Below, piece by piece: positions 9,998 to 63,013 of a stretch of 64,000 nt of DNA. This stretch comes from an uncultured Planctomycetia bacterium (GTDB taxonomy: Bacteria > Omnitrophota > Gorgyraeia > JABMRN01 > RBG-13-46-9). The notes below the pieces were generated by a model. It was not told the DNA's origin. It saw nothing but the letters and a program-made list of their open reading frames with translations, and made no database searches. The translations under genes and the position numbers were made by a program. The first letter of the stretch is position 1. The number at the start of each line of letters is the position of its first letter. The stretch covers positions 5,855 through 69,854 of the forward strand of contig CAZYPU010000002.1 in NCBI GenBank assembly GCA_964649665.1, read 5' to 3'.

Positions 9998-11215
9998 ATG
10001 GGGATAGCGGATTACGAAAGCATCGTAGGCAAGGGCATAATCTACGAGCTCGGCCTTATAAGCAAAAAACTTAAGAAGAAAAAGATCCAGTGTATAAATT
10101 CCACGAAGCTCGGAGGCGGCGTCGCGGAAATACTTTCGCGGATTATCCCGCTTCTCAACGACCTGGGGATAGACGCCACATGGGACGTTATAGAGGCCGA
10201 TCCCGACTACTTCAACGTTACCAAGGCCTTCCATAACGCCCTGCACGGAAAAAGCGAAGGTATTACAAAAAGCATGTTTGACAAATTCCTTTCTACGGGT
10301 AAGGATATCCTGCGAAGCACCAAAATATACGGCGACATTGTTTTCGTCCACGACCCGCAGCCGATCATGTTGATCGAAAATAAGAAAAGCGCGAATAAGT
10401 GGATCTGGCGCTGTCACGTTGACGTATCAAAGCCGTATATGGAGGTATGGGAATTCCTGAAGCTCTTTATAGAGCAGTACGACATTTCCGTGTTTTCGAA
10501 CCCGAGTTTCGCGCGTCAGCTGGAAATTCCGCAGTTTCTCGTAACCCCGTCCATTGACCCTTTCAGCGAGAAAAACCGCGAACTTACGCGGGAAGAAATA
10601 GAAAGCGTGTTGGAAAAATACGAAATAGAGAAGGGTAAGCCCATTATAACCCAGGTTTCGCGGTTTGATTACCTGAAGGATCCCGTGGGCGTAATCGAGG
10701 CCTACCGCCTCGTAAAGAAATACGTGGACTGCCAGCTCATTCTGGCCGGCAACCGCGCCGCCGACGACCCGGAAAGCGACACGGTTCTCGCCGAGGTCAT
10801 GCAGGAGAAAGGGAACGACCCGGACATACACGTTCTTGTGATAGAGCCGGAAAAGAACGATTTTGACATAAACGGTATCCAGCGCGCTTCAAGCGTGATA
10901 ATCCAAAAATCCATACGAGAAGGGTTCGCCATAACCGTAACCGAGGCCCTCTGGAAGGCGAAACCCGTAGTCGCCTCAGCGGTCGGCGGTATCCCGCAGC
11001 AGATAAGGCACCGTCACAGCGGACTTCTCTGCCACACAGTGGGCGGCGCCGCCCTCATGATACGCGAGCTCCTGAATAACCCGGAATACGCCACGCGTCT
11101 CGGCAAAAATGGCAAGGAGCACATCCGGCGTAACTTCTTATCCACCCGCCACTTACGCGACTACATGCTTCTATTTCTCTACCTCTACAATCCCGACGAT
11201 ATAATTTACCTGTAG
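9998..11215 (+). CDS. treT: trehalose glycosyltransferring synthase-like GT4 glycosyltransferase
   Basis: Close resemblance to archaeal TreT as I recall it (INSTKLGGGVAEIL, FNVTKAFHNALHG, WIWRCHVD, PSIDPFSEKN, KPIITQVSRFD, IQKSIREGFAITVTEALWK). Confidence 0.75.
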   Translation: MGIADYESIVGKGIIYELGLISKKLKKKKIQCINSTKLGGGVAEILSRIIPLLNDLGIDATWDVIEADPDYFNVTKAFHNALHGKSEGITKSMFDKFLSTGKDILRSTKIYGDIVFVHDPQPIMLIENKKSANKWIWRCHVDVSKPYMEVWEFLKLFIEQYDISVFSNPSFARQLEIPQFLVTPSIDPFSEKNRELTREEIESVLEKYEIEKGKPIITQVSRFDYLKDPVGVIEAYRLVKKYVDCQLILAGNRAADDPESDTVLAEVMQEKGNDPDIHVLVIEPEKNDFDINGIQRASSVIIQKSIREGFAITVTEALWKAKPVVASAVGGIPQQIRHRHSGLLCHTVGGAALMIRELLNNPEYATRLGKNGKEHIRRNFLSTRHLRDYMLLFLYLYNPDDIIYL

Positions 11216-11229
11216 ACCGCCCGCCAAAG

Positions 11230-11439
11230 ATAAGCCTCCAGCGGGTGCTTGCCAGCGGCTCACACAAAAAATTGTGTAAAGCTATCTCCCTTGAATTTCT
11301 GCAATTTGTGAATCGGAAGGTGTGAATTATCGAGTATCTTATTTTCCGTAGAGCTATCCCTATCATGTCCAATTCACAAATTGCGAAATTCTACGGTCAA
11401 GAGCATTCGCCGCTTGGCAAGCACCCACTGGAGGCTTAT
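11230..11439 (+). repeat. family-1a nested-hairpin repeat, copy A
   Basis: Outer arms ATAAGCCTCCAGCGGGTGCTTGCCAGCGGC / GCCGCTTGGCAAGCACCCACTGGAGGCTTAT. Inner arms GAATTTCTGCAATTTGTGAATCGG / CCAATTCACAAATTGCGAAATTC. Starts 15 nt after the treT stop. Confidence 0.75.
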
Positions 11440-11470
11440 TTAACGAAAGTCTGTCTCGGCAGATATCAGC

Positions 11471-11666
11471 AATAAGGGCCTGTAGGGGTGGGCGATTGAG
11501 GCGAATAGATTCGACGTAGAATTTCATAATTTGCGAGCGGAATATAGAGATATGGCACTTTATGACATACCTGATTATCCGCTTGCAAATTGTAGAAATT
11601 CGAGGAGAAGATTTTGGCTCAATGTTTTGAGCTGAGCCTCAATCGCCCACCTCTACAGGCCTTATT
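11471..11666 (-). repeat. family-1a nested-hairpin repeat, copy B (opposite orientation)
   Basis: Outer arms AATAAGGGCCTGTAGGGGTGGGCGATTGAGGC / GCCTCAATCGCCCACCTCTACAGGCCTTATT. Its reverse complement carries the same junction motifs as copy A. Confidence 0.75.
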
Positions 11667-11706
11667 ACTGTAAGCGGAACAGGGCGAAACCCCTCAGAAA
11701 AAAGCG

Positions 11707-11734
11707 TTGCAATTTCGCTGTAACGTGATACAAT
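11707..11734 (+). promoter_or_regulatory. sigma70-like promoter for leuC (TTGCAA-16-TGATACAAT, extended -10)
   Basis: Read directly. The -10 ends 10 nt before the ATG at 11745 and no SD is visible. Confidence 0.45.
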
Positions 11735-11744
11735 TACACCCTGT

Positions 11745-13025
11745 ATGGGATATACCATAACCGAGAAGATACTGCTGGCGCACACTAAGGCGAAGGCCGT
11801 TAAGCCGGGCGATTTCATAACCGCGAAGGTGGATTTCTGCTTTGGAAACGACATAACCGCGCCGATCGCTATAGGAGAATTCGATAGGATAAAGGCGAAA
11901 AAGGTCTTTGACAAAACAAGGATCGCCCTTATTCCGGACCACTTCACGCCCGCAAAGGACATGAAAAGCGCCAACCAGGCGAAGGTTTTGCATAGCTTTG
12001 CCAGGAAGCACGATATAGCGCATTATTATGAGGTGGGAAGGATGGGTATTGAGCACGTCCTTCTTCCGGAGAAGGGCCTCGTTTTACCGGGCAACCTTGT
12101 AGTTGGCGCGGATTCGCACACATGCACATACGGCGCGCTCGGGTGCTTTTCCACCGGGGTGGGGTCAACGGACCTTGCGTTCGCTTTTGTGACAGGGGAG
12201 TGCTGGCTCAAGGTCCCGGAGACGATAAAATTTGTTTATCACGGCAAGCCCAAGAAGTGGGTTACCGGTAAGGACCTTATCCTTTATACGATAGGCAGGA
12301 TATGCACTGACGGGGCGCTCTACAAAGCGATGGAATTTTCCGGGAGCGCGATTAAAAACCTACCGATGGACGATAGGTTCACGATGTGCAACATGGCCAT
12401 CGAGGCCGGCGCCAAAAACGGCATTATCGAACCGGACGAAACCACGGTAAGTTACGTAAAAAAAGCGATAAGAAAAAATAAGCCCGGGAGAAAGAGTTTC
12501 AAATTATATAAAAGCGACAAAGACGCCAGGTATGCCGAAGTTATAGAATACGATGTTTCCAAAATCGAGCCGCAGGTGAGCCTTCCGCATCTGCCGAGCA
12601 ACGCCAAACCCGTGAATAAGGTGAAAAATGTACTTATTGACCAGGTAGTCATCGGCTCGTGCACTAACGGAAGGATAAGCGATCTGGAAGCGGCTGCGAA
12701 GATACTCAAAGGGAAAAAGGTGAAGCAGAGTACGAGATTGATCGTTATACCTGCGACGCAGGCGGTTTACCTGGAGGCGGTAAAAAGAGGGTTTGCTAAA
12801 ATTTTCGTCGAAGCGGGGGGTGTGTTTTCCACGCCGAGTTGCGGCCCATGCTTAGGCGGGCACCTTGGCATACTTGCCGAAGGCGAGAGGTGCGTGGCTA
12901 CAACGAACAGGAATTTTGTCGGCAGGATGGGCCACCCTAAATCCGAGGTGTATCTTGCCTCGCCGGCTGTCGCGGCCGCAAGCGCCGTGCGCGGCCGGGT
13001 TGCGCATCCGAAGGAAGTCGCATGA
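11745..13025 (+). CDS. leuC: 3-isopropylmalate dehydratase large subunit (aconitase family, short type)
   Basis: [13 protein letters not shown] and GSCTNGR Fe-S ligand motifs. About 420 aa, the LeuC/HacA size class. Followed by the small subunit and the dehydrogenase. Confidence 0.85.
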
Positions 13026-13058: not shown

Positions 13059-13170
13059 GTCATTCTGAGCCCCGCCCTTCGCTAGCGCTCAGGATAAACT
13101 CCGCGGGGCGAAGAATCTTAACGATAAGATCCTTCGTCGGGCTGACTTCGTCAGCCCTCCTCAGGATGAC
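13059..13170. repeat. family-2 multi-hairpin repeat, long variant
   Basis: GTCATTCTGAG...CTCAGGATGAC outer stem encloses CCCCGC/GCGGGG, CGAAGAATCTT/AAGATCCTTCG and GCTGAC-TTC-GTCAGC hairpins. Lies between leuC and leuD. Confidence 0.7.
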
Positions 13171-13185
13171 AGGCAAAAAAAGAAC

Positions 13186-14717: not shown

Positions 14718-14721
14718 GATT

Positions 14722-14805
14722 GTCATTGCGAGCCCCGCGAAGCGGGGCGAAGCAATCTCTTAGTATGAGATTGCTTCGTCGGCACTTCGTGCCTCCTCGC
14801 AATGA
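14722..14805. repeat. family-2 three-hairpin repeat, canonical 84-bp copy
   Basis: GTCATTGCGAG-[CCCCGC GAAG CGGGGC]-[GAAGCAATCTC ttagtat GAGATTGCTTC]-[GGCAC TTC GTGCC]-CTCGCAATGA. Starts 5 nt after the leuB stop. Confidence 0.8.
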
Positions 14806-14822
14806 TATATGGAGTACGTAAA

Positions 14823-15875
14823 ATGCTAAAGAAAAAAGACGAGTATAACGTAGCAATAATGGGCGCTACCGGTGCTGTCGGCGCGCAGTTTCTGTCCCTT
14901 CTCGAGGAGAGGCATTTTCCCGTTGCAGAACTCCGTCTCCTTGCCTCTGAAAGATCTAAGGGTAAGAAGATTAAGTTTAAGGGCAAGGCCTGTCCGGTAG
15001 AGATTCTTACTCACAGATCGTTCAAGGGCGTAGACATCATCCTATCAAGCGCGGGCGCCGCAAGAAGCCTTGAGTTTTTGCCGAGCGCCGTGAAAGCGGG
15101 AGCGGTATGCGTGGATAATTCAAGCGCCTTCAGGATGCAAAAAGAGGTTCCTCTCGTTGTTCCGGAGGTAAACCCGCAAAGGACAGAGGGCCACAAAGGC
15201 ATTATCGCAAACCCGAACTGCTCAACCATACAGGCAGTCGTTGCGTTGTGGCCGCTGCATAAAAAAGCGAAAATTAAAAGGATAGTTGCCTCGACCTATC
15301 AGTCGGTTTCCGGCGCCGGCCAGAAAAAGATTCTGGAGCTGGAAAAACAGGTGGAGGCAATAGATAAAGTCGTTGATAACTGGGTAATCGGAAGCCACGG
15401 CGTGGATAAATTCCTGATAAAGGAATTTCCGTATCAGACAGCCTTTAACCTGATTCCGCAGATAGACGTATTCCTGGATAACGCTTACACCAAGGAAGAG
15501 ATGAAACTTGTGAACGAAACCCGCAAAATCATGGAAGACCCAAACATCAGGATTACCTCGACCTGCATTCGCGTGCCGGTTTTCTTTGCGCACTCGGAGA
15601 GCATAAACATAGAGACCGAGAAGAAACTCAAGCCCGATGAAGCGAGAAAAATCCTTGCAAAGGCGCCGGGCGTCGTTTTGATAGACGATCCTAAAAAGGA
15701 GAAATACCCCATGCCCCTGGACGCCGAAGGAAAAAATGAGGTTTTCGTCGGACGTATCCGCGAGGACGAATCCGTGGAAAACGGCCTTAACCTCTGGGTT
15801 GTAAGCGACAACCTCCGAAAAGGCGCGGCCCTTAACGCGATTCAGATAGCGGAGCTGCTTATAAAGCATGCGTAA
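14823..15875 (+). CDS. asd: aspartate-semialdehyde dehydrogenase
   Basis: VAIMGATGAVG Rossmann motif and active-site NPNCSTI. ATG at 14823 has GGAG 8 nt upstream. The track start at 14802 lies inside the repeat arm. Confidence 0.85.
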   Translation: MLKKKDEYNVAIMGATGAVGAQFLSLLEERHFPVAELRLLASERSKGKKIKFKGKACPVEILTHRSFKGVDIILSSAGAARSLEFLPSAVKAGAVCVDNSSAFRMQKEVPLVVPEVNPQRTEGHKGIIANPNCSTIQAVVALWPLHKKAKIKRIVASTYQSVSGAGQKKILELEKQVEAIDKVVDNWVIGSHGVDKFLIKEFPYQTAFNLIPQIDVFLDNAYTKEEMKLVNETRKIMEDPNIRITSTCIRVPVFFAHSESINIETEKKLKPDEARKILAKAPGVVLIDDPKKEKYPMPLDAEGKNEVFVGRIREDESVENGLNLWVVSDNLRKGAALNAIQIAELLIKHA

Positions 15876-16686
15876 CATCCGCCTCACCGTCGCCTACGAC
15901 GGCACTTGCTACGCCGGCTGGCAGATCCAGAAAAACGCAAAGACCATCCAGGGCGAAATCGAAAAAGCGTTAAAAAAAATACTTAAAACAAAAGTCCGTC
16001 TGATCGGCGCCGGCCGCACCGACTCCGGAGTCCACGCCCGCGCGCAGGTTGCGAATTTTAGTATTCGTCATTGCGAGGAGGCGCGAAGCGCCAACGAAGC
16101 AATCTCCTATGAGATTGCTTCGCTCCCTTTGGTCGCTCGCAATGACAGAAAAAAATCAGTGCACGGGCTTCAAGCAGCGTTAAACTCAAGCCTTCCATGT
16201 GATATTCGTATCATTGAGGTAAAAGAGGCGCCGCTTGAATTTCATTCGCGGTTTGACGCAAGGGGCAAGTTTTACAGGTATACGATCCTCAACAGCCCGA
16301 TAAACGATCCCTTCCTCCGGGATTATTGCCATAGAGTTTCTTGTAAGTTAAATCTCCCGCTGATGCGAAAAGAGGCGGCCGTTTTACTCGGGCGGCACGA
16401 CTTTAAATCCTTCCAGGCAAAGAGCGCCTCATCGCCCATAAAAGATACGCGAAGGACGATAAAGAAAATAACTTTTAAAAAAGAAAAAGATCTCATCCAT
16501 ATCAATATCGAAGCCAACGGTTTCCTGTACAACATGGTTCGTAACATCATAGGCACCCTCATCGAGATCGGAAGGGGATACCTTCCCGAAGGCAGCATGC
16601 GAAAGATCCTCTCCTCTAAAGACCGCCGGAAAGCCGGCCCTACCGCCCCTGCCAAAGGCCTTACCCTGATAAAGGTTAAATACTAA
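15868..16686 (+). CDS. truA: tRNA pseudouridine(38-40) synthase TruA, carrying an in-frame repeat insertion
   Basis: AGRTDSGVHA catalytic motif and FYRYTI. The segment IRHCEEARSANEAISYEIASLPLVARND is encoded by a family-2 repeat. Confidence 0.85.
   Translation: MRNIRLTVAYDGTCYAGWQIQKNAKTIQGEIEKALKKILKTKVRLIGAGRTDSGVHARAQVANFSIRHCEEARSANEAISYEIASLPLVARNDRKKSVHGLQAALNSSLPCDIRIIEVKEAPLEFHSRFDARGKFYRYTILNSPINDPFLRDYCHRVSCKLNLPLMRKEAAVLLGRHDFKSFQAKSASSPIKDTRRTIKKITFKKEKDLIHINIEANGFLYNMVRNIIGTLIEIGRGYLPEGSMRKILSSKDRRKAGPTAPAKGLTLIKVKY
16067..16146. repeat. family-2 repeat copy inside the truA coding sequence
   Basis: GTCATTGCGAG...CGAAGCAATCTC ctat GAGATTGCTTCG...CTCGCAATGAC read directly. The reading frame is preserved across it. 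Confidence 0.8.
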
Positions 16687-16719: not shown

Positions 16720-16895
16720 AATATCTTGTGTAAATTCGATGGGCATCTGAGAGCGGGAGTCCTTTCGGCGAATTTTGCATGCGACTGGCAATTTATGTGT
16801 TCAAGATTTGAAACGCTAAATTGCTACAGCCGCGCTGCAAAATTTTTCGCCTCAAGGACATCCCGCTCTCAGATGCCCTATAGATACAAGATATT
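16720..16895. repeat. family-1b nested-hairpin repeat, copy D
   Basis: AATATCTTGT/ACAAGATATT, GGGCATCTGAGAGCGGGA/TCCCGCTCTCAGATGCCC and GGCGAATTTTGCA/TGCAAAATTTTTCGCC nested arms. Starts 34 nt after the truA stop. Confidence 0.7.
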
Positions 16896-23772: not shown

Positions 23773-23776
23773 GCCT

Positions 23777-23937
23777 GTCATCCTGAGGAGGCCTGTCCCC
23801 CACCCTACGGGTCGTAGACCCGGAGGGAAAGGCCGACGACCGAAGGAAGTCCCGCATACCACAATGAACAATATAGGCCATGCGGGACGAAGGATCTTAA
23901 CGTAGAGATTCTTCGCCCCTTCGGGGCTCAGAATGAC
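23777..23937. repeat. family-2 composite repeat (GTCATCCTGAG...CTCAGAATGAC)
   Basis: Outer stem plus GTCCCGCAT/ATGCGGGAC, GAAGGATCTT/AGATTCTTCG and CCCC-TTCG-GGGG hairpins. Carries the 28-nt module ACCCTACGGGTCGTAGACCCGGAGGGAA. Confidence 0.7.
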
Positions 23938-23974
23938 AAAGTGGGGAAACTCCTCGCAAGAAAGAGGGTAATGC

Positions 23975-27692: not shown

Positions 27693-29229
27693 ACAGCGGG
27701 AAACCTGGAAATCGCACTGGGGCATGATAGCGGCTATGATAGGGACCGCTATCGGCCTCGGTAATATCTGGAGATTTCCTTACCTTTGCGGCAAGTACGG
27801 CGGAGCGACCTTCCTTATTCCTTACGTAATCCTTCTATTCGGAATAGCGATTTTCGCGATGATGTGCGAGTGGGCCCTCGGCCGCCACACCAAGCGCGAG
27901 GCCCTCGGCGCTTTTGACAAGATAAAATTTCCGTTCGGAAGGGACATCGGCGCCTGGGGCATAATCGGGCCGTTCTTCCTGTATTCCTATTATATAGTCA
28001 TAACAAGTTGGGTTATATTTTTCATATTCGCCTCCCTTGAAGGGCTTTATTTCGGTAAAAACACCGAAACCTTTTTCGCCTCTTTTCTTGGAAGTAAATG
28101 GATATTTGCCGTGCATTTCGCTTCCGTCTGCATTACAAGCTGGATCCTTGCCATGGGCGTGCAAAAGGGCATAGAGAGGGCGTGCAAAATTATGATACCC
28201 GCGCTTTTTGTGCTCCTTATAATTGTGGCGGCAAGAAGCGTGACGCTTCCGGGCGCGGCAGAGGGCGTGGAATTTTACATGAGGCCGAGGTGGGATGGGC
28301 TGCTTAACATTGAGACATGGGTTGCGGCGCTGGGCCAGGTATTTTTTACGCTTAGCCTCGGCATGGGCGCGATGCTTATTTACGGCTCCTATCTTAAAGA
28401 CGAATGGGGCATACCGGCGAACGCCATGAGCGTGGCGCTGGGGAATACCTCGGCGAGCATCCTCGCGGGGTTTGCTATTTTCCCCGCGGCCTTCGCGCTC
28501 GGATTCGGAAAGACCATAGGCGGGGCAGAGTCCATAGGCCTTACTTTTTTCGTCCTGCCGAAGGTATTTGAGATGATGCCCGGAGGCCACTTCTTCGGGG
28601 GGCTATTTTTTATCCTGCTTGCCTTCGGCGCCATATCGAGCGCCATAAGTATCCAGGAGCCGGCCATAGCGTGGCTGAAAGACGAGGCCGGATGGTCAAG
28701 AAAGAGATCGGCATTTTTTACCGGCGTTATATTGTGGATAATGGGGTTTCCTTTTATTCTTAACGGCTTTATTAAAGGCACCCTCGGCGCGAAACTGGCG
28801 CTGCTTTCGAAAATGGATATTATCATAGGGCAGCTCGCCATACCTGTATTCGGTATTCTTGCGATAATCGCCGTCGGGTACTTCATGAAAGACCGCGGCT
28901 TTGACGAAATGAATAAAAACGCGAGAGTCAAACTCAGCCATACCTGGCTTAAGCCCTGGATCAGGGCAGTCGTGCCGATTTTCATCGGGCTTTTATTCAT
29001 ATTGACGCTTCTTAAAATTTTGCAGGAGAAAGGCGTCATACCGCCTGTAATTCCTTCGAAAGCGGCGCTTGAGTTTACCCCGATAGGCATAACGCCCGTT
29101 ACGATCGTCATGATCGTATTCATATGCGTTCTCTTCTGGGGCGGTTTTCTGTACACGACGGTGAAGGTGCTGACGGTAGAGAAAGACAAGAAACGGAGAG
29201 TAAAACGTGGACTTCACCATTCTCGCTGA
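27685..29229 (+). CDS. sodium:neurotransmitter symporter (NSS/SNF) family transporter
   Basis: GLGNIWRFPYLCGKYGGATFLIPY signature and about 11-12 TM segments. The GTG start overlaps the REC stop. Confidence 0.85.
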   Translation: MTEQRETWKSHWGMIAAMIGTAIGLGNIWRFPYLCGKYGGATFLIPYVILLFGIAIFAMMCEWALGRHTKREALGAFDKIKFPFGRDIGAWGIIGPFFLYSYYIVITSWVIFFIFASLEGLYFGKNTETFFASFLGSKWIFAVHFASVCITSWILAMGVQKGIERACKIMIPALFVLLIIVAARSVTLPGAAEGVEFYMRPRWDGLLNIETWVAALGQVFFTLSLGMGAMLIYGSYLKDEWGIPANAMSVALGNTSASILAGFAIFPAAFALGFGKTIGGAESIGLTFFVLPKVFEMMPGGHFFGGLFFILLAFGAISSAISIQEPAIAWLKDEAGWSRKRSAFFTGVILWIMGFPFILNGFIKGTLGAKLALLSKMDIIIGQLAIPVFGILAIIAVGYFMKDRGFDEMNKNARVKLSHTWLKPWIRAVVPIFIGLLFILTLLKILQEKGVIPPVIPSKAALEFTPIGITPVTIVMIVFICVLFWGGFLYTTVKVLTVEKDKKRRVKRGLHHSR

Positions 29230-29332
29230 TGCGCGCTTCGGCTGGACCTTCGTTATATCCGAAATTATCCTTCTATACCTCCTCTTCCTCCTTATCCACC
29301 GCCTCGTCGAGCGGAAGCTTAAAGGCAAGTAA
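29207..29332 (+). CDS. possible 41-aa single-TM small subunit of the NSS transporter
   Basis: GTG-start ORF VDFTILADARFGWTFVISEIILLYLLFLLIHRLVERKLKGK overlaps the transporter's 3' end. Too short for the ORF track. Resembles small NSS partner proteins (MetS-like) by position and size only. Confidence 0.35.
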   Translation: MDFTILADARFGWTFVISEIILLYLLFLLIHRLVERKLKGK

Positions 29333-29349
29333 CCGGAAAATTTAGCAAT

Positions 29350-29607
29350 ATAGGCCTCCGGGGGATGCCTGCGGCGGCTCACACAAAAAATTGTGTAAAG
29401 CTCTCTCCGTAGAATTTCTGCGCTGTGCTCGTTGGATTTAAGGAAATACAAAAGAAATAGCCGATGGTTTTCTTGTCCGCCGAAGCCTTGGCGTAGGCGG
29501 AAACCATCGGCTATTTCTTCGAACTAGACCTGTATACCAACTGCGCAAGCGCGAAATTCTATTGTCGAGAGCATTCGCCGCCTGGCAGGCATCCCCCGGA
29601 GGCCTAT
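29350..29607 (+). repeat. family-1a nested-hairpin repeat, copy C
   Basis: Outer arms ATAGGCCTCCGGGGGATGCCTGCGGCGGC / GCCGCCTGGCAGGCATCCCCCGGAGGCCTAT. Shares GGCTCACACAAAAAATTGTGTAAAGCT, GAATTTCTGC, GCGAAATTCTA and GAGCATTCGCCGC with copy A. Confidence 0.75.
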
Positions 29608-29682
29608 TCTTACTGTACATTTGAAAGCTAATCCGACAGATCTAACCAGGTTAGAATGCCGTCTATATCGACACCTACGGAC

Positions 29683-29951
29683 GGGAGAGAGTCTGTGTGA
29701 AGAGCCTTAAAAATTAAGGCGTAGTTTTATGCTTTTTGAGGTTTCCTTTTGTCACATGTTATGAGACAAAAAGGATTGCAGTTGTCTGAGGCCCACACCG
29801 AGCGTATCACCAGCAAGGCGTGTGTGGGCCGAGTTCTGCAATCCCCTCAAAAAGCTTAAAACTACACCGACCCCCACACCAATTACTATTGGTGTGGGGG
29901 ATAATTTTTCTTATCAGCTTTAGCAGAAGGCTCTCACACAGGCTCTCTCCC
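29683..29951. repeat. large multi-branch inverted-repeat element (copy F)
   Basis: GGGAGAGAGTCTGTGTGAAGAGCC / GGCTCTCACACAGGCTCTCTCCC closes at least four internal hairpins (for example GGCGTAGTTTTATGCTTTTTGAGG / CCTCAAAAAGCTTAAAACTACACC; CCCCCACACCAAT-tact-ATTGGTGTGGGGG). Confidence 0.65.
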
Positions 29952-30008
29952 GGCCGGAGGTAAGTGTGTGAGCCGCTTGGAAAGCATACCCGGAGGTTTA
30001 TTTTATGC

Positions 30009-35323: not shown

Positions 35324-35382
35324 CGCCCGAAGCAATCCCAAACGATGAGATTGCTTCGGCGCCTTTGGCGCCTCGCAATGAC
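35303..35382. repeat. family-2 three-hairpin repeat overlapping the argD 3' end
   Basis: GTCATTGCGAG-[GGCGC gatag CGCCC]-[GAAGCAATC...GAGATTGCTTC]-[GGCGCC ttt GGCGCC]-TCGCAATGAC. The argD TAG stop is in the first loop. Confidence 0.8.
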
Positions 35383-35399
35383 AAGATGGGAATAAACAA

Positions 35400-46993: not shown

Positions 46994-47239
46994 ATGGCGA
47001 AAGTGTTATGCAAATGCGGCATAAAGAGGAAGAAAGGCTACCTCTATTTTGTCGGTAAGAACGGCTGCGCTTATGAGACAAAAATGGCGCGCGGCAAAAA
47101 AAAGGGCGGCGGAAGGAAAATGATACACAACTGTCGCGTAAAGAAGCAGAAAGGCTATCTTTATTTTATCGATAAGAAAGGCAACGTCTCCTGCGCAAAA
47201 ATGCAGTGCGGCGGCAAAAAGAAGAGAAGAAAGAGATAG
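46994..47239 (+). CDS. small, very basic Cys-containing protein with an internal tandem duplication
   Basis: Two about 39-aa repeats each contain K-KGYLYF(V/I)xKxG ... (A/C)KM..GGKKK. GGGGGTGA SD-like run upstream. Confidence 0.5.
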   Translation: MAKVLCKCGIKRKKGYLYFVGKNGCAYETKMARGKKKGGGRKMIHNCRVKKQKGYLYFIDKKGNVSCAKMQCGGKKKRRKR

Positions 47240-57310: not shown

Positions 57311-57497
57311 AAGTAAACCGGGATCCTGTCCGCAGGTGTCAGCTGTCAGCGGGCGCCCTTCCGGCGAATTTTGTGGCTCGCTGCAATTGGTGTGGGGAAG
57401 CTTTCACCACTCAATTGCGACGCTCACGCACAAAATTTTTCGCCTCCAGGGCATCCCGCCGACAGCTGCCACCAAAATTTGTAATCCCGGTTTACTT
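57311..57497. repeat. family-1b nested-hairpin repeat, copy E
   Basis: AAGTAAACCGGGAT/ATCCCGGTTTACTT, CAGCTGTCAGCGGG/CCCGCCGACAGCTG and GGCGAATTTTGTG/CACAAAATTTTTCGCC nested arms. Starts 2 nt after the etfA stop. Confidence 0.7.
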
Positions 57498-62693: not shown

Positions 62694-62829
62694 GTCATCC
62701 TGAGGCGCCCTGAAAGGGTGCCGTCTCCGACCCTACGGGTCGTAGACCCGGAGGGAAGGATCTTTCGTTAAGATTCTTCGGCACTGCGTGCCTTAGAATG
62801 ACAAGGGTGAAGGGCTCGCTCAGGATGAC
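62694..62829. repeat. family-2 composite repeat
   Basis: GTCATCCTGAG...CTCAGGATGAC with an internal TTAGAATGAC arm and the same 28-nt module ACCCTACGGGTCGTAGACCCGGAGGGAA (62730-62757) seen at 23802-23829. Confidence 0.7.
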
Positions 62830-62877
62830 ACAAGGAGAAAATAGGATAATGTAAAATATTGTGGGCACTTTCAACAT

Positions 62878-63013
62878 GTCATTGCGAGGTCTGCGAAGCA
62901 GACCGAAGCAATCTTTTCGTTTGAGATTGCTTCCTCCTTCGCCACATTGCTTACGCGTGTGGCTTCGGAGGACAAGTCGGCCACTATCGCTTGTAGGGCG
63001 GCCTCGCAATGAC
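62878..63013. repeat. family-2 repeat, extended copy
   Basis: GTCATTGCGAG-[GTCTGC gaa GCAGAC]-[CGAAGCAATCT...GAGATTGCTTC]-extra hairpins-CTCGCAATGAC. Confidence 0.75.

Follow-up and report, generated by a model that had tools for sequence, protein, structure and literature searches.

What kind of element are the nested hairpins that lie between housekeeping genes of an uncultured Omnitrophota bacterium? The question is raised by three copies, A, B and C, located by coordinates on a 64 kb stretch of contig CAZYPU010000002.1 (the window). A sequence-only reading of this DNA had described them as a structure-constrained element, recognised no named family and wavered between a structured RNA or 3' untranslated region (3'-UTR) element and a DNA cruciform or an element resembling MITEs (miniature inverted-repeat transposable elements). 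The copies are members of a real, unnamed dispersed non-coding repeat family, here termed family 1a, in a group of uncultured Omnitrophota. They share a common fold that is supported by covariation, are dispersed and non-coding, are present or absent at orthologous sites, have no orientation preference and carry no RNA wobble signature. The best reading, to which a probability of roughly 45% is assigned, is that of a non-autonomous mobile DNA element that is recognised via its single-strand fold.

A common branched fold

The family 1a unit spans ~200-270 bp and is non-coding, and a single strand of it, either one, folds into a nested, branched hairpin. Folding of nine copies one by one resulted in an identical architecture in 9/9. 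The outer stem, P1, is 25-32 bp long and free in sequence but for its closure by GGC/GCC. It opens onto a three-way junction, GGC-TCA / ATTC-GCC, in which an invariant TCA on the 5' side and an invariant ATTC on the 3' side, preceding P1 closure, are unpaired. P2 is a 5-6 bp hairpin with an A-rich loop, and P3 is a short covarying helix that reads GCTCTC/GAGAGC, GTT-TTC/GAAAAC or ATTTTT/GAAAAT. An internal loop with TCTCC on one strand and GTC on the other is followed by the invariant 7-bp helix P4 (GAATTTC/GAAATTC), beside which GTAG/CTAC is found in some copies only. The variable helix P5 and the apical hairpins at its tips set the subtypes. All type-1 copies, namely A, C and those at the comparison loci L009 and L012, carry a 1-2 nt bulge on the 3' arm right after GCCGC.

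All three copies in the window were confirmed at the positions and in the orientations first proposed. Copy A (11230-11439, + strand) is a full element of type 1 and A subtype that scored 137.4 bits (E 7e-33) with the covariance model. Its P1 5' arm (11230-11259) closes with the invariant GGC and is followed, on the same strand, by the invariant GGCTCA junction and P2, ACACAA-AAAA-TTGTGT (11257-11277), and by the 5' side of P4, GAATTTCT (11293-11300), whose partner GAAATTC lies at 11385-11391. The 3' conserved block, GAAATTCTACGGTCAAGAGCATTCGCC (11385-11411), comprises the 3' sides of P4 and P3 and the ATTC junction, and the P1 3' arm (11409-11439) has one additional nucleotide past GCCGC.

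Copy B (11471-11666, - strand) is a full element of type 2 and B subtype. Its 5' motif region (11594-11638, -) holds GGCTCA, the hairpin GCTCAA-AACA-TTGAGC, TCTCC and GAATTTCT, and its 3' conserved block (11500-11525, -) is GAAATTCTACGTCGAATCTATTCGCC. A and B stand tail to tail with a 31-nt spacer between them, as a convergent type-1/type-2 pair. The covariance model gave B 128.7 bits on the strand it occupies and 38.1 bits on the opposite strand; the elements are therefore asymmetric and more than simple palindromes.

Copy C (29350-29607, + strand) is a full element of type 1 and C subtype, with GGCTCA, the P2 hairpin, AAAGCTCTCTCC and GAATTTCT in its 5' motif region (29376-29419, +) and GAAATTCTATTGTCGAGAGCATTCGCC as its 3' conserved block (29553-29579, +). 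An apical hairpin with 30-nt arms (29452-29519, +) is restricted to the C subtype and recurs in L009 and L011a. A solo fragment, consisting of an inverted type-1 5' arm and GGCTCACACA, is found at 29965-30004 on the - strand, immediately upstream of the rplM promoter.

The patterns GGCTCA-N(25-40)-GAATTTCT and GAAATTCTA-N(8-14)-ATTCGCC each matched exactly three times in the 64 kb, at A, B (on the - strand) and C, compared with 0.01 matches in shuffles. The motifs that had been listed as common to the three copies held for the junction in A, B and C; AAAGCT(A/C)TCTCC and GAGCATTCGCC are exact in A and C only, B carrying the variants AAAATCTTCTCC and ATCTATTCGCC. According to a repeat finder the outer arms are 25 nt and 96% complementary in A, 26 nt and 96% in B, and 23 nt and 100% in C. 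The palindromes of B (CAGCAAT...ATTACTG, ~11467-11670) and C (AGCAAT...TTACT, ~29344-29615) reach 4-6 nt past the ends first given for the two copies. RNA folding of A, B and C gave -101.8, -101.4 and -157.5 kcal/mol with z = -12.2, -15.2 and -17.1, respectively, in one common architecture, and DNA folding of A gave similar values for both strands (z = -10.1 and -12.2). As first observed, no credible open reading frame (ORF) is present within the copies, which hold short spurious ones only.

Covariation and strand signature

Eight full copies were aligned with the variable apex replaced by GAAA, and an RNAalifold consensus of 51 pairs was obtained. In this set, whose eight sequences are kin in pairs and whose innermost P5 pairs adjoin the artificial loop, 27 of the 51 consensus pairs were changed on both sides. 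The fraction of paired cells was 89.6%, as compared to 76.3% in shuffled alignments (0/500 shuffles reached the observed value) and 34-49% with slid partners, and the covariation score was 0.397 versus 0.160 in shuffles. Double changes occurred in 17/26 P1, 2/5 P2 and 4/7 P3 pairs and once in P4, as a GAATTTA/TAAATTC swap in L011b. The earlier view, in which structure constrains the element and compensatory changes fall on several levels of stem, was thereby strengthened, and the covariation did not vanish as more copies were added.

Near-perfect arms that diverge fast between copies might alternatively mark functionless palindromes in which complementarity is kept by gene conversion from arm to arm or by mismatch repair in the hairpin. 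In line with this explanation, the arm pairs frequently show flips, for instance from G-C to C-G. Gene conversion is, however, unable to act on the covarying 5-6 bp arms of P2 and P3, and would erase the bulge conserved behind GCCGC in A, C, L009 and L012. It also leaves unexplained why GGCTCA, TCTCC, GTC and ATTCGCC stay invariant and unpaired across copies with ~58% arm identity, and why the interior is conserved far above neutral sites. As the sole explanation, which the sequence-only reading had named as a way in which its proposal could fail, gene conversion is largely refuted and a purely functionless origin is quite improbable, although the process may contribute to arm homogenisation and so help to keep the long arms matched.

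The strand in which the fold matters was evaluated by counting the mismatches in alignments of the 5' arms with their reverse-complemented partners. A structure selected in one RNA strand is expected to show many G.U and few A.C mismatches. Overall, 23 G.U-type and 24 A.C-type mismatches were counted, and in P1 alone 5 and 12. The copies also occur in both orientations: A, C, L008 and L012 are co-oriented with the host genes, and B, L015B, L043, L011b and a mini copy in L015 are opposed to them, with no promoters found ahead of the opposed copies. The parity of G.U and A.C together with the two orientations favours a structure that matters in either strand, that is, folded DNA. Equal counts are also what random recent mutations would give under gene conversion. 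An alternative is that the mismatches represent recent decay, the fold having mattered only at transposition.

These strand data bear on the idea that family 1a is RNA-borne, either as a trans-acting non-coding RNA (ncRNA) gene family or as the retron- or SINE-like template of a remote reverse transcriptase, in which the outer stem would be a processing stalk or an a1/a2-like pairing. The terminal stem, the small 5' hairpin and the long inner hairpin resemble retron msr-msd RNA, the junction nucleotides are strongly conserved and the model score is strand-specific (129 vs 38 bits). Retron RNAs are, however, single-copy and adjacent to their reverse transcriptase, and none is encoded among the proteins neighbouring family 1a; the opposed copies have no preceding promoter, the wobble signature is missing and Rfam gave no match. 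Little credence is accordingly given to either form of this idea.

Divergence of the outer arms

Arms matched their own partners at 26.4 of 30 positions and the partners of other copies at 16.8 of 30. Between L008 and L011b the arms are 58% and the interior 87% identical, and between B and L015B 60-67% and 83%. Arm identity between subfamilies is 57-67%, the arms diverging at two to three times the interior rate. The tips differ between subfamilies as well (ATAAGCC, AGCTTG, AAGACCGG): ATAAGCC...GGCTTAT is common to A, L009, L012 and L015B, and L008, L010 and L011b have tips of unrelated sequence. The flanks were checked for target-site duplications, as had been suggested, and held no direct repeat outside the palindrome; the TA/AT at type-1 tips merges with the palindrome, from which it is inseparable, and is absent in L008, L010 and L011b.

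Small size, long terminal inverted repeats, absence of ORFs, multiple intergenic copies and tips common to four of the copies are features of a classical MITE, that is, an internally deleted derivative of an insertion sequence (IS) with a DDE transposase, whose arms would be terminal inverted repeats and whose fold would be incidental. Conserved terminal inverted repeats are nevertheless lacking in family 1a, in which arms are ~58% identical between subfamilies, three copies have unrelated tips, and the conserved nucleotides are internal and unpaired instead of terminal. Furthermore, DDE transposition gives no role to covariation in P2 and P3, no consistent target-site duplication was apparent, TA fitting type 1 only and lying within the palindrome, and no related IS was seen in ~300 kb of clade DNA. 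A match to a known MITE with defined terminal inverted repeats and target-site duplications likewise did not turn up, no IS/MITE database having been compared. The classical form is therefore improbable.

Two other origins of the arms were considered and rejected. The first, that outer arms are host hairpins that received the core, conflicts with the joint occurrence of C arms and C core at both the window C site and the L043 leuC site, and is also contradicted by the fragment at 29965-30004 and the L015 mini copy, in which arm and GGCTCA remain joined. As arm type moves with core type and fragments retain arm and GGCTCA, the arms belong to the element. The second, that B is C with a flipped interior between common flanks, was discarded on the account that the AGCAAT/ATTACT flanks merely extend the palindrome.

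Further copies and searches

Scanning of metagenomes for the 3' motif brought up five true copies, L008, L009, L010, L011a and L012, and a sixth, L011b, was found in a regex pass; L011a and L011b form a convergent type-1/type-2 pair like A and B. Other comparison loci were fetched through LeuC and SNF homologues. Among these, L015 (GCA_020346285.1) holds a B-type copy, L015B, at the orthologous site, beside a deleted mini copy made up of P1, GGCTCA, P2 and TTCGCC, and L043, the closest relative (LeuC 91%), has at its leuC site a C-type copy represented by its 5' half. At least eight further copies or fragments were found in this way in metagenome contigs and Omnitrophota relatives. The scan pattern allowed a spacer of N2-3 and missed B-type copies, in which the spacer is 1 nt, so that copy counts and range are lower bounds.

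The A/C-type 3' motif gave two chance matches only in GTDB representative genomes, B-type spacing being outside the pattern. It was not found in viral contigs either: three pattern scans gave 0, 0 and 26 matches, and all 26 lacked the 3' motif and were due to chance. No match was obtained for A and B with blastn against plasmids and phages, and a protein search with a spurious 60-aa ORF inside C, seeking mis-called genes at other copies, gave no candidates. With Rfam gathering thresholds the window gave 0 matches, and a cut-off relaxed to E = 10 brought up just generic hairpins far below threshold, bearing out that no named family is recognisable; ARAGORN found no tRNA or tmRNA, and literature searches on Omnitrophota repeats yielded nothing relevant. 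Several contigs stop in or next to family 1a copies, namely L006 and L010 at their ends and L011, L043 and L053 at their starts, and the repeats thus break metagenome assemblies.

Insertion sites, gain and loss

Genes neighbouring the copies are housekeeping genes, nearly all on the + strand, and the closest LeuC and SNF homologues bear the names Candidatus Omnitrophota or Omnitrophica. Copies settle between a stop codon and the following promoter or gene. A and B lie between a trehalose operon with a TreT-like transferase and leuC, leuD and leuB: A begins 14 nt past the TAG of the TreT-like glycosyltransferase gene (9998-11215) and B adjoins the leuC promoter (11707-11734). C follows an SNF transporter gene and precedes rplM, rpsI and arginine-biosynthesis genes led by a semialdehyde dehydrogenase, beginning 17 nt past the stop of a conserved 41-aa ORF (29207-29332). 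A start 15-18 nt past a stop codon, at first ascribed to every copy, is hence approximated by A and C only, B being on the - strand and 31 nt beyond A. The 41-aa ORF is hydrophobic and overlaps the end of the SNF transporter gene; as it is conserved in L016, L048 and L049, it probably encodes a real small membrane protein. Elsewhere, the L008 copy lies within a MoxR-DUF58-BatD operon, and the L012 copy (region 1551-1840) sits in the loop of a canonical terminator whose G+C-rich stem, AAACCGCCGCTCGGC / GTCGAGCGGCGG, measures 15-16 bp and precedes U9 (T9).

Comparison of orthologous loci, a check that had been proposed at the outset, showed the sites to be filled in some relatives and empty in L016, L048, L054 and L055. 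L016, L054 and L055 have an empty TreT-LeuC spacer of 54-112 nt, in which the leuC -35 box comes directly after the stop codon. In the window this spacer is 529 nt (11216-11744) and holds A and B, in L015 it is ~700 nt and holds another repeat family, the mini copy and B, and in L044 it is 386 nt with unrelated content. This spacer, which varies from 54 to ~700 nt among relatives, is an insertion hot spot between stop codon and -35 box. The C-type copy at the leuC site of L043 has the orientation of B, with a boundary equal within ~2 nt. That different subfamilies repeatedly used one site upstream of leuC, in one orientation, is a hint of target selectivity.

At the SNF-rplM spacer, L048 has 125 nt with an ordinary terminator-like hairpin and no copy, and L016 has ~340 nt with no full copy. 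In L049 (SNF 89%) a different repeat family begins exactly at the start point of C, after CCGGAAAATTT. This family, 'X' (L015 160-335, L049 2060-2195), has the ends GGACAGGCTTTAAGC / GCTTAAAGCCGTCC and fills, in other lineages, intergenic points that family 1a fills in the window; additional right-end copies of it flank the B copy in L015. C itself is 98% identical to L009 over ~200 nt of interior, and the flanks of the two are unrelated.

In a LeuC tree L015, which has B, grouped with the empty-site genomes and apart from the window. The B-type copies, which agree in site and orientation, are therefore independent insertions, survivors of several precise losses or products of lateral exchange. 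In the comparison of window and L015, identity is 43% at leuC four-fold sites (saturation ~30%) and 83% in the B interior. Judged from these alignments, the family 1a interior is conserved far above neutral DNA.

Conservation of this kind, together with the position of A, C, L008 and L012 directly behind stop codons on the sense strand, is what a cis-acting structured RNA would also show, that is, a 3'-UTR or intra-operon element engaged in 3'-end protection, termination or RNase III processing, with the fold selected copy by copy. RNase III needs a sequence-free stem of at least 22 bp, a need that the outer stem meets, and the RNA folds are extremely stable. No terminator-like site was found in 11100-11800, leaving no canonical terminator between TreT and the leuC promoter, so that A and B would lie in a 3' UTR. 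Moreover, the copies are fixed in every sampled population, and B retains 83% identity between two genomes in which four-fold sites have almost saturated. Roughly half of the copies, however, are opposed to their host genes, and the host transcripts would there hold the complement of the conserved junction nucleotides. G.U is not in excess over A.C, most relatives have no element at these sites, different repeat families replace one another at one point, and no U-tract stands behind the family 1a stems, the only good terminator of the C region (29871-29900) being outside the element. This terminator-like hairpin lies inside another nested hairpin of ~290 nt (29673-29961) directly downstream of C, with arms of 28 nt that are 89% complementary and z = -13.6. 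A cis-acting RNA is on the whole unlikely, if a serious contender. Of the two options that the sequence-only reading had held open, both orientations, filled and empty orthologous sites and the lack of a G.U excess over A.C lean towards folded, MITE-like DNA rather than a dedicated sense-strand RNA.

The pair of orientations also recalls invertons, here segments of 150-210 bp between inverted repeats that a site-specific invertase flips as a promoter switch. Family 1a has 25-30 bp inverted repeats around ~150-210 bp, is found in both orientations and places B-type and C-type copies immediately upstream of the leuC promoter. Three independent assemblies of the window's strain for A/B and three for C were nevertheless all identical to the window, with a single orientation and zero differences, so that both orientations were not seen in one population. 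Contrary to the need of an invertase, the arm sequences are unconserved; the nested covarying helices are unexplained, and the one weak promoter-like match inside B is directed away from leuC. An invertible switch is thus very improbable indeed.

A proposed route of mobility

In the proposed mechanism, a trans-acting enzyme would recognise the fold itself. The sequence-free outer stem P1 would bring the two ends of the element together, and the invariant junction and P4 nucleotides may serve as specific contacts. Movement would proceed via a folded single strand, on the model of IS200/IS605-REPIN transposition or of recombination at integron attC sites. Copies between genes would be co-transcribed passively and would influence mRNA stability or 3' ends only secondarily, if at all.

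One candidate for such machinery was met in L044, where a 219-aa gene (14786-15445) has a faint match to Y1_Tnp (HUH/Y1, RAYT-like). Repetitive extragenic palindromes (REPs) of the form GTAGAGACGC(C/G)ATTAAT(G/C)GCGTCTCTAC are carried inside and right after the gene. Neither these REPs nor the flanking GTAGAGACGCCATTAATGGCGTCTCTAC was found in any other fetched locus, the window not having been searched for the latter. The gene accordingly tells only that single-strand DNA transposition machinery occurs in the clade.

A number of points weigh against mobility through a single-strand fold. A mobilising enzyme, an autonomous copy, a target-site duplication, an excision product or a circular intermediate was not found, and the 27 proteins tested that are encoded near copies in L008, L009, L011, L012 and the window have ordinary housekeeping roles, with no transposase, recombinase or reverse transcriptase among them. 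The REPs beside the L044 gene are unrelated to family 1a. The tips of the element are unconserved and cut sites are thus undefined by sequence. Neither A, B nor C was polymorphic in the sampled populations of the window's strain, and B, being 83% conserved at one site in two distant genomes, could owe this to an in-place function at the level of the host instead of to mobility. The tests themselves are small, the covariation set being 8 full copies that are pairwise related and the mismatch tally 23 vs 24 (5 vs 12 in P1), and the full range and copy number of the family probably exceed the reach of the pattern scans.

A bolder version of the mobile-element reading, in which an undescribed structure-addressed system moves family 1a and perhaps related nested-hairpin families too, is unlikely. 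The enzyme would then read the three-way junction with its few invariant unpaired nucleotides, and the stem would merely juxtapose the ends.

Comparison with known systems

By life-style, family 1a belongs with the bacterial MITEs, REPINs and bcr1, but its conservation pattern, a fixed interior junction with free ends, is the reverse of that in MITEs and REPINs. Like family 1a, REPINs are short, non-coding, intergenic, multi-copy and non-autonomous, form one long hairpin as single-stranded DNA or RNA and occur as inverted pairs or clusters, and compensatory changes preserve their hairpin (PMC3116915) as they do in family 1a. In REPINs the ends (REPs, with an invariant 16-mer) are conserved and the spacer varies, whereas family 1a has free ends and a conserved internal junction. 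A REP is in itself a small palindrome that bears a 5' GTAG; family 1a has no such unit and its conserved blocks are not self-palindromic. REPINs are moved by RAYT Y1 transposases, and no RAYT is linked to family 1a, in which both a conserved 20-40 nt REP doublet and a cognate RAYT with the same repeats are lacking.

Bacterial MITEs such as Correia/NEMIS, ERIC, RUP and Nezha can form long stem-loops as RNA and often share a transcript with the genes beside them (PMC3184786). They share with family 1a the small size, the lack of ORFs and transposase, dispersed multi-copy intergenic placement, long terminal inverted repeats and presence or absence among relatives. They differ in that the terminal repeats of family 1a are unconserved between copies, its conserved part being a branched internal junction, and in that neither a target-site duplication nor a parent IS was found for it. 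The repeat bcr1 of the Bacillus cereus group, ~155 bp long, is transcribed, has a non-conserved genomic distribution between related strains and a branched ('cruciform-like') structure maintained by compensatory changes, and is classed as a mobile sequence of a special kind (PMC3184786). It is unrelated to family 1a in sequence, is from a different host phylum and consists of two independent stem-loops with 5-bp flanking direct repeats, as opposed to one enclosing stem with a three-way junction and no direct repeats.

With respect to the proposed recognition, the nearest parallels are sites read as folded single-stranded DNA, among them IS200/IS605 ends and integron attC. The latter is a recombination site in which structure rather than sequence is recognised, with conserved short boxes by extrahelical bases and a variable terminal structure. 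As in family 1a, a hairpin joins the two ends of attC, and its location is right behind stop codons. The attC R''/R' sites (RYYYAAC/GTTRRRY) are, however, lacking in family 1a, whose ends are ATAAGCC...GGCTTAT or other. Furthermore, attC sites form cassette arrays of uniform orientation, whereas family 1a copies are found in both orientations, as in A and B, between syntenic housekeeping genes, are much longer and branched, and have no integrase nearby. Family 1a is likewise neither an Rfam family nor an intrinsic terminator.

If family 1a is indeed mobile through its fold, Omnitrophota would harbour small mobile repeats defined by a branched fold and a few junction nucleotides, with unconserved ends, and a structure-reading enzyme would still be to be found. 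Should the undescribed structure-addressed system exist, it would be a third fold-addressed form of DNA mobility, after integron attC and IS200/IS605-REPIN ends. Structure-specific recombination sites are of practical interest, synthetic attC sites being an example. If instead the element acts as RNA, a phylum without genetics would harbour a new 3'-UTR or operon-spacer element, one that covariation strongly supports. Besides breaking assemblies, family 1a inflates intergenic regions and may be mistaken for an ncRNA gene in motif screens.

Other repeats in the window

A related nested-hairpin family, '1b', occurs at 16739-16880 and 57336-57472, its copies starting 26-52 nt past a stop codon. 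It has a long variable outer stem around CGGCGAATTTTG...CAAAATTTTTCGCC, an inner GCAATT/AATTGC helix and (A/T)TTCGCC motifs, and its copies scored 30 and 14 bits with the family 1a covariance model. Further palindromic intergenic repeats were observed at 14721-14805, 16068-16147, 35328-35383 and 62877-62936, and also at 13075-13174, 23773-23939 and 62766-62804. These short repeats comprise at least two families, of the TGTCATTGCGAG...GAAGCAATCTC and GACGAAGGATCTTA... types, the genome being rich in such elements. Finally, a 67-nt direct repeat is present at 46999-47065 and 47116-47182, with 78% identity and 117-nt spacing.

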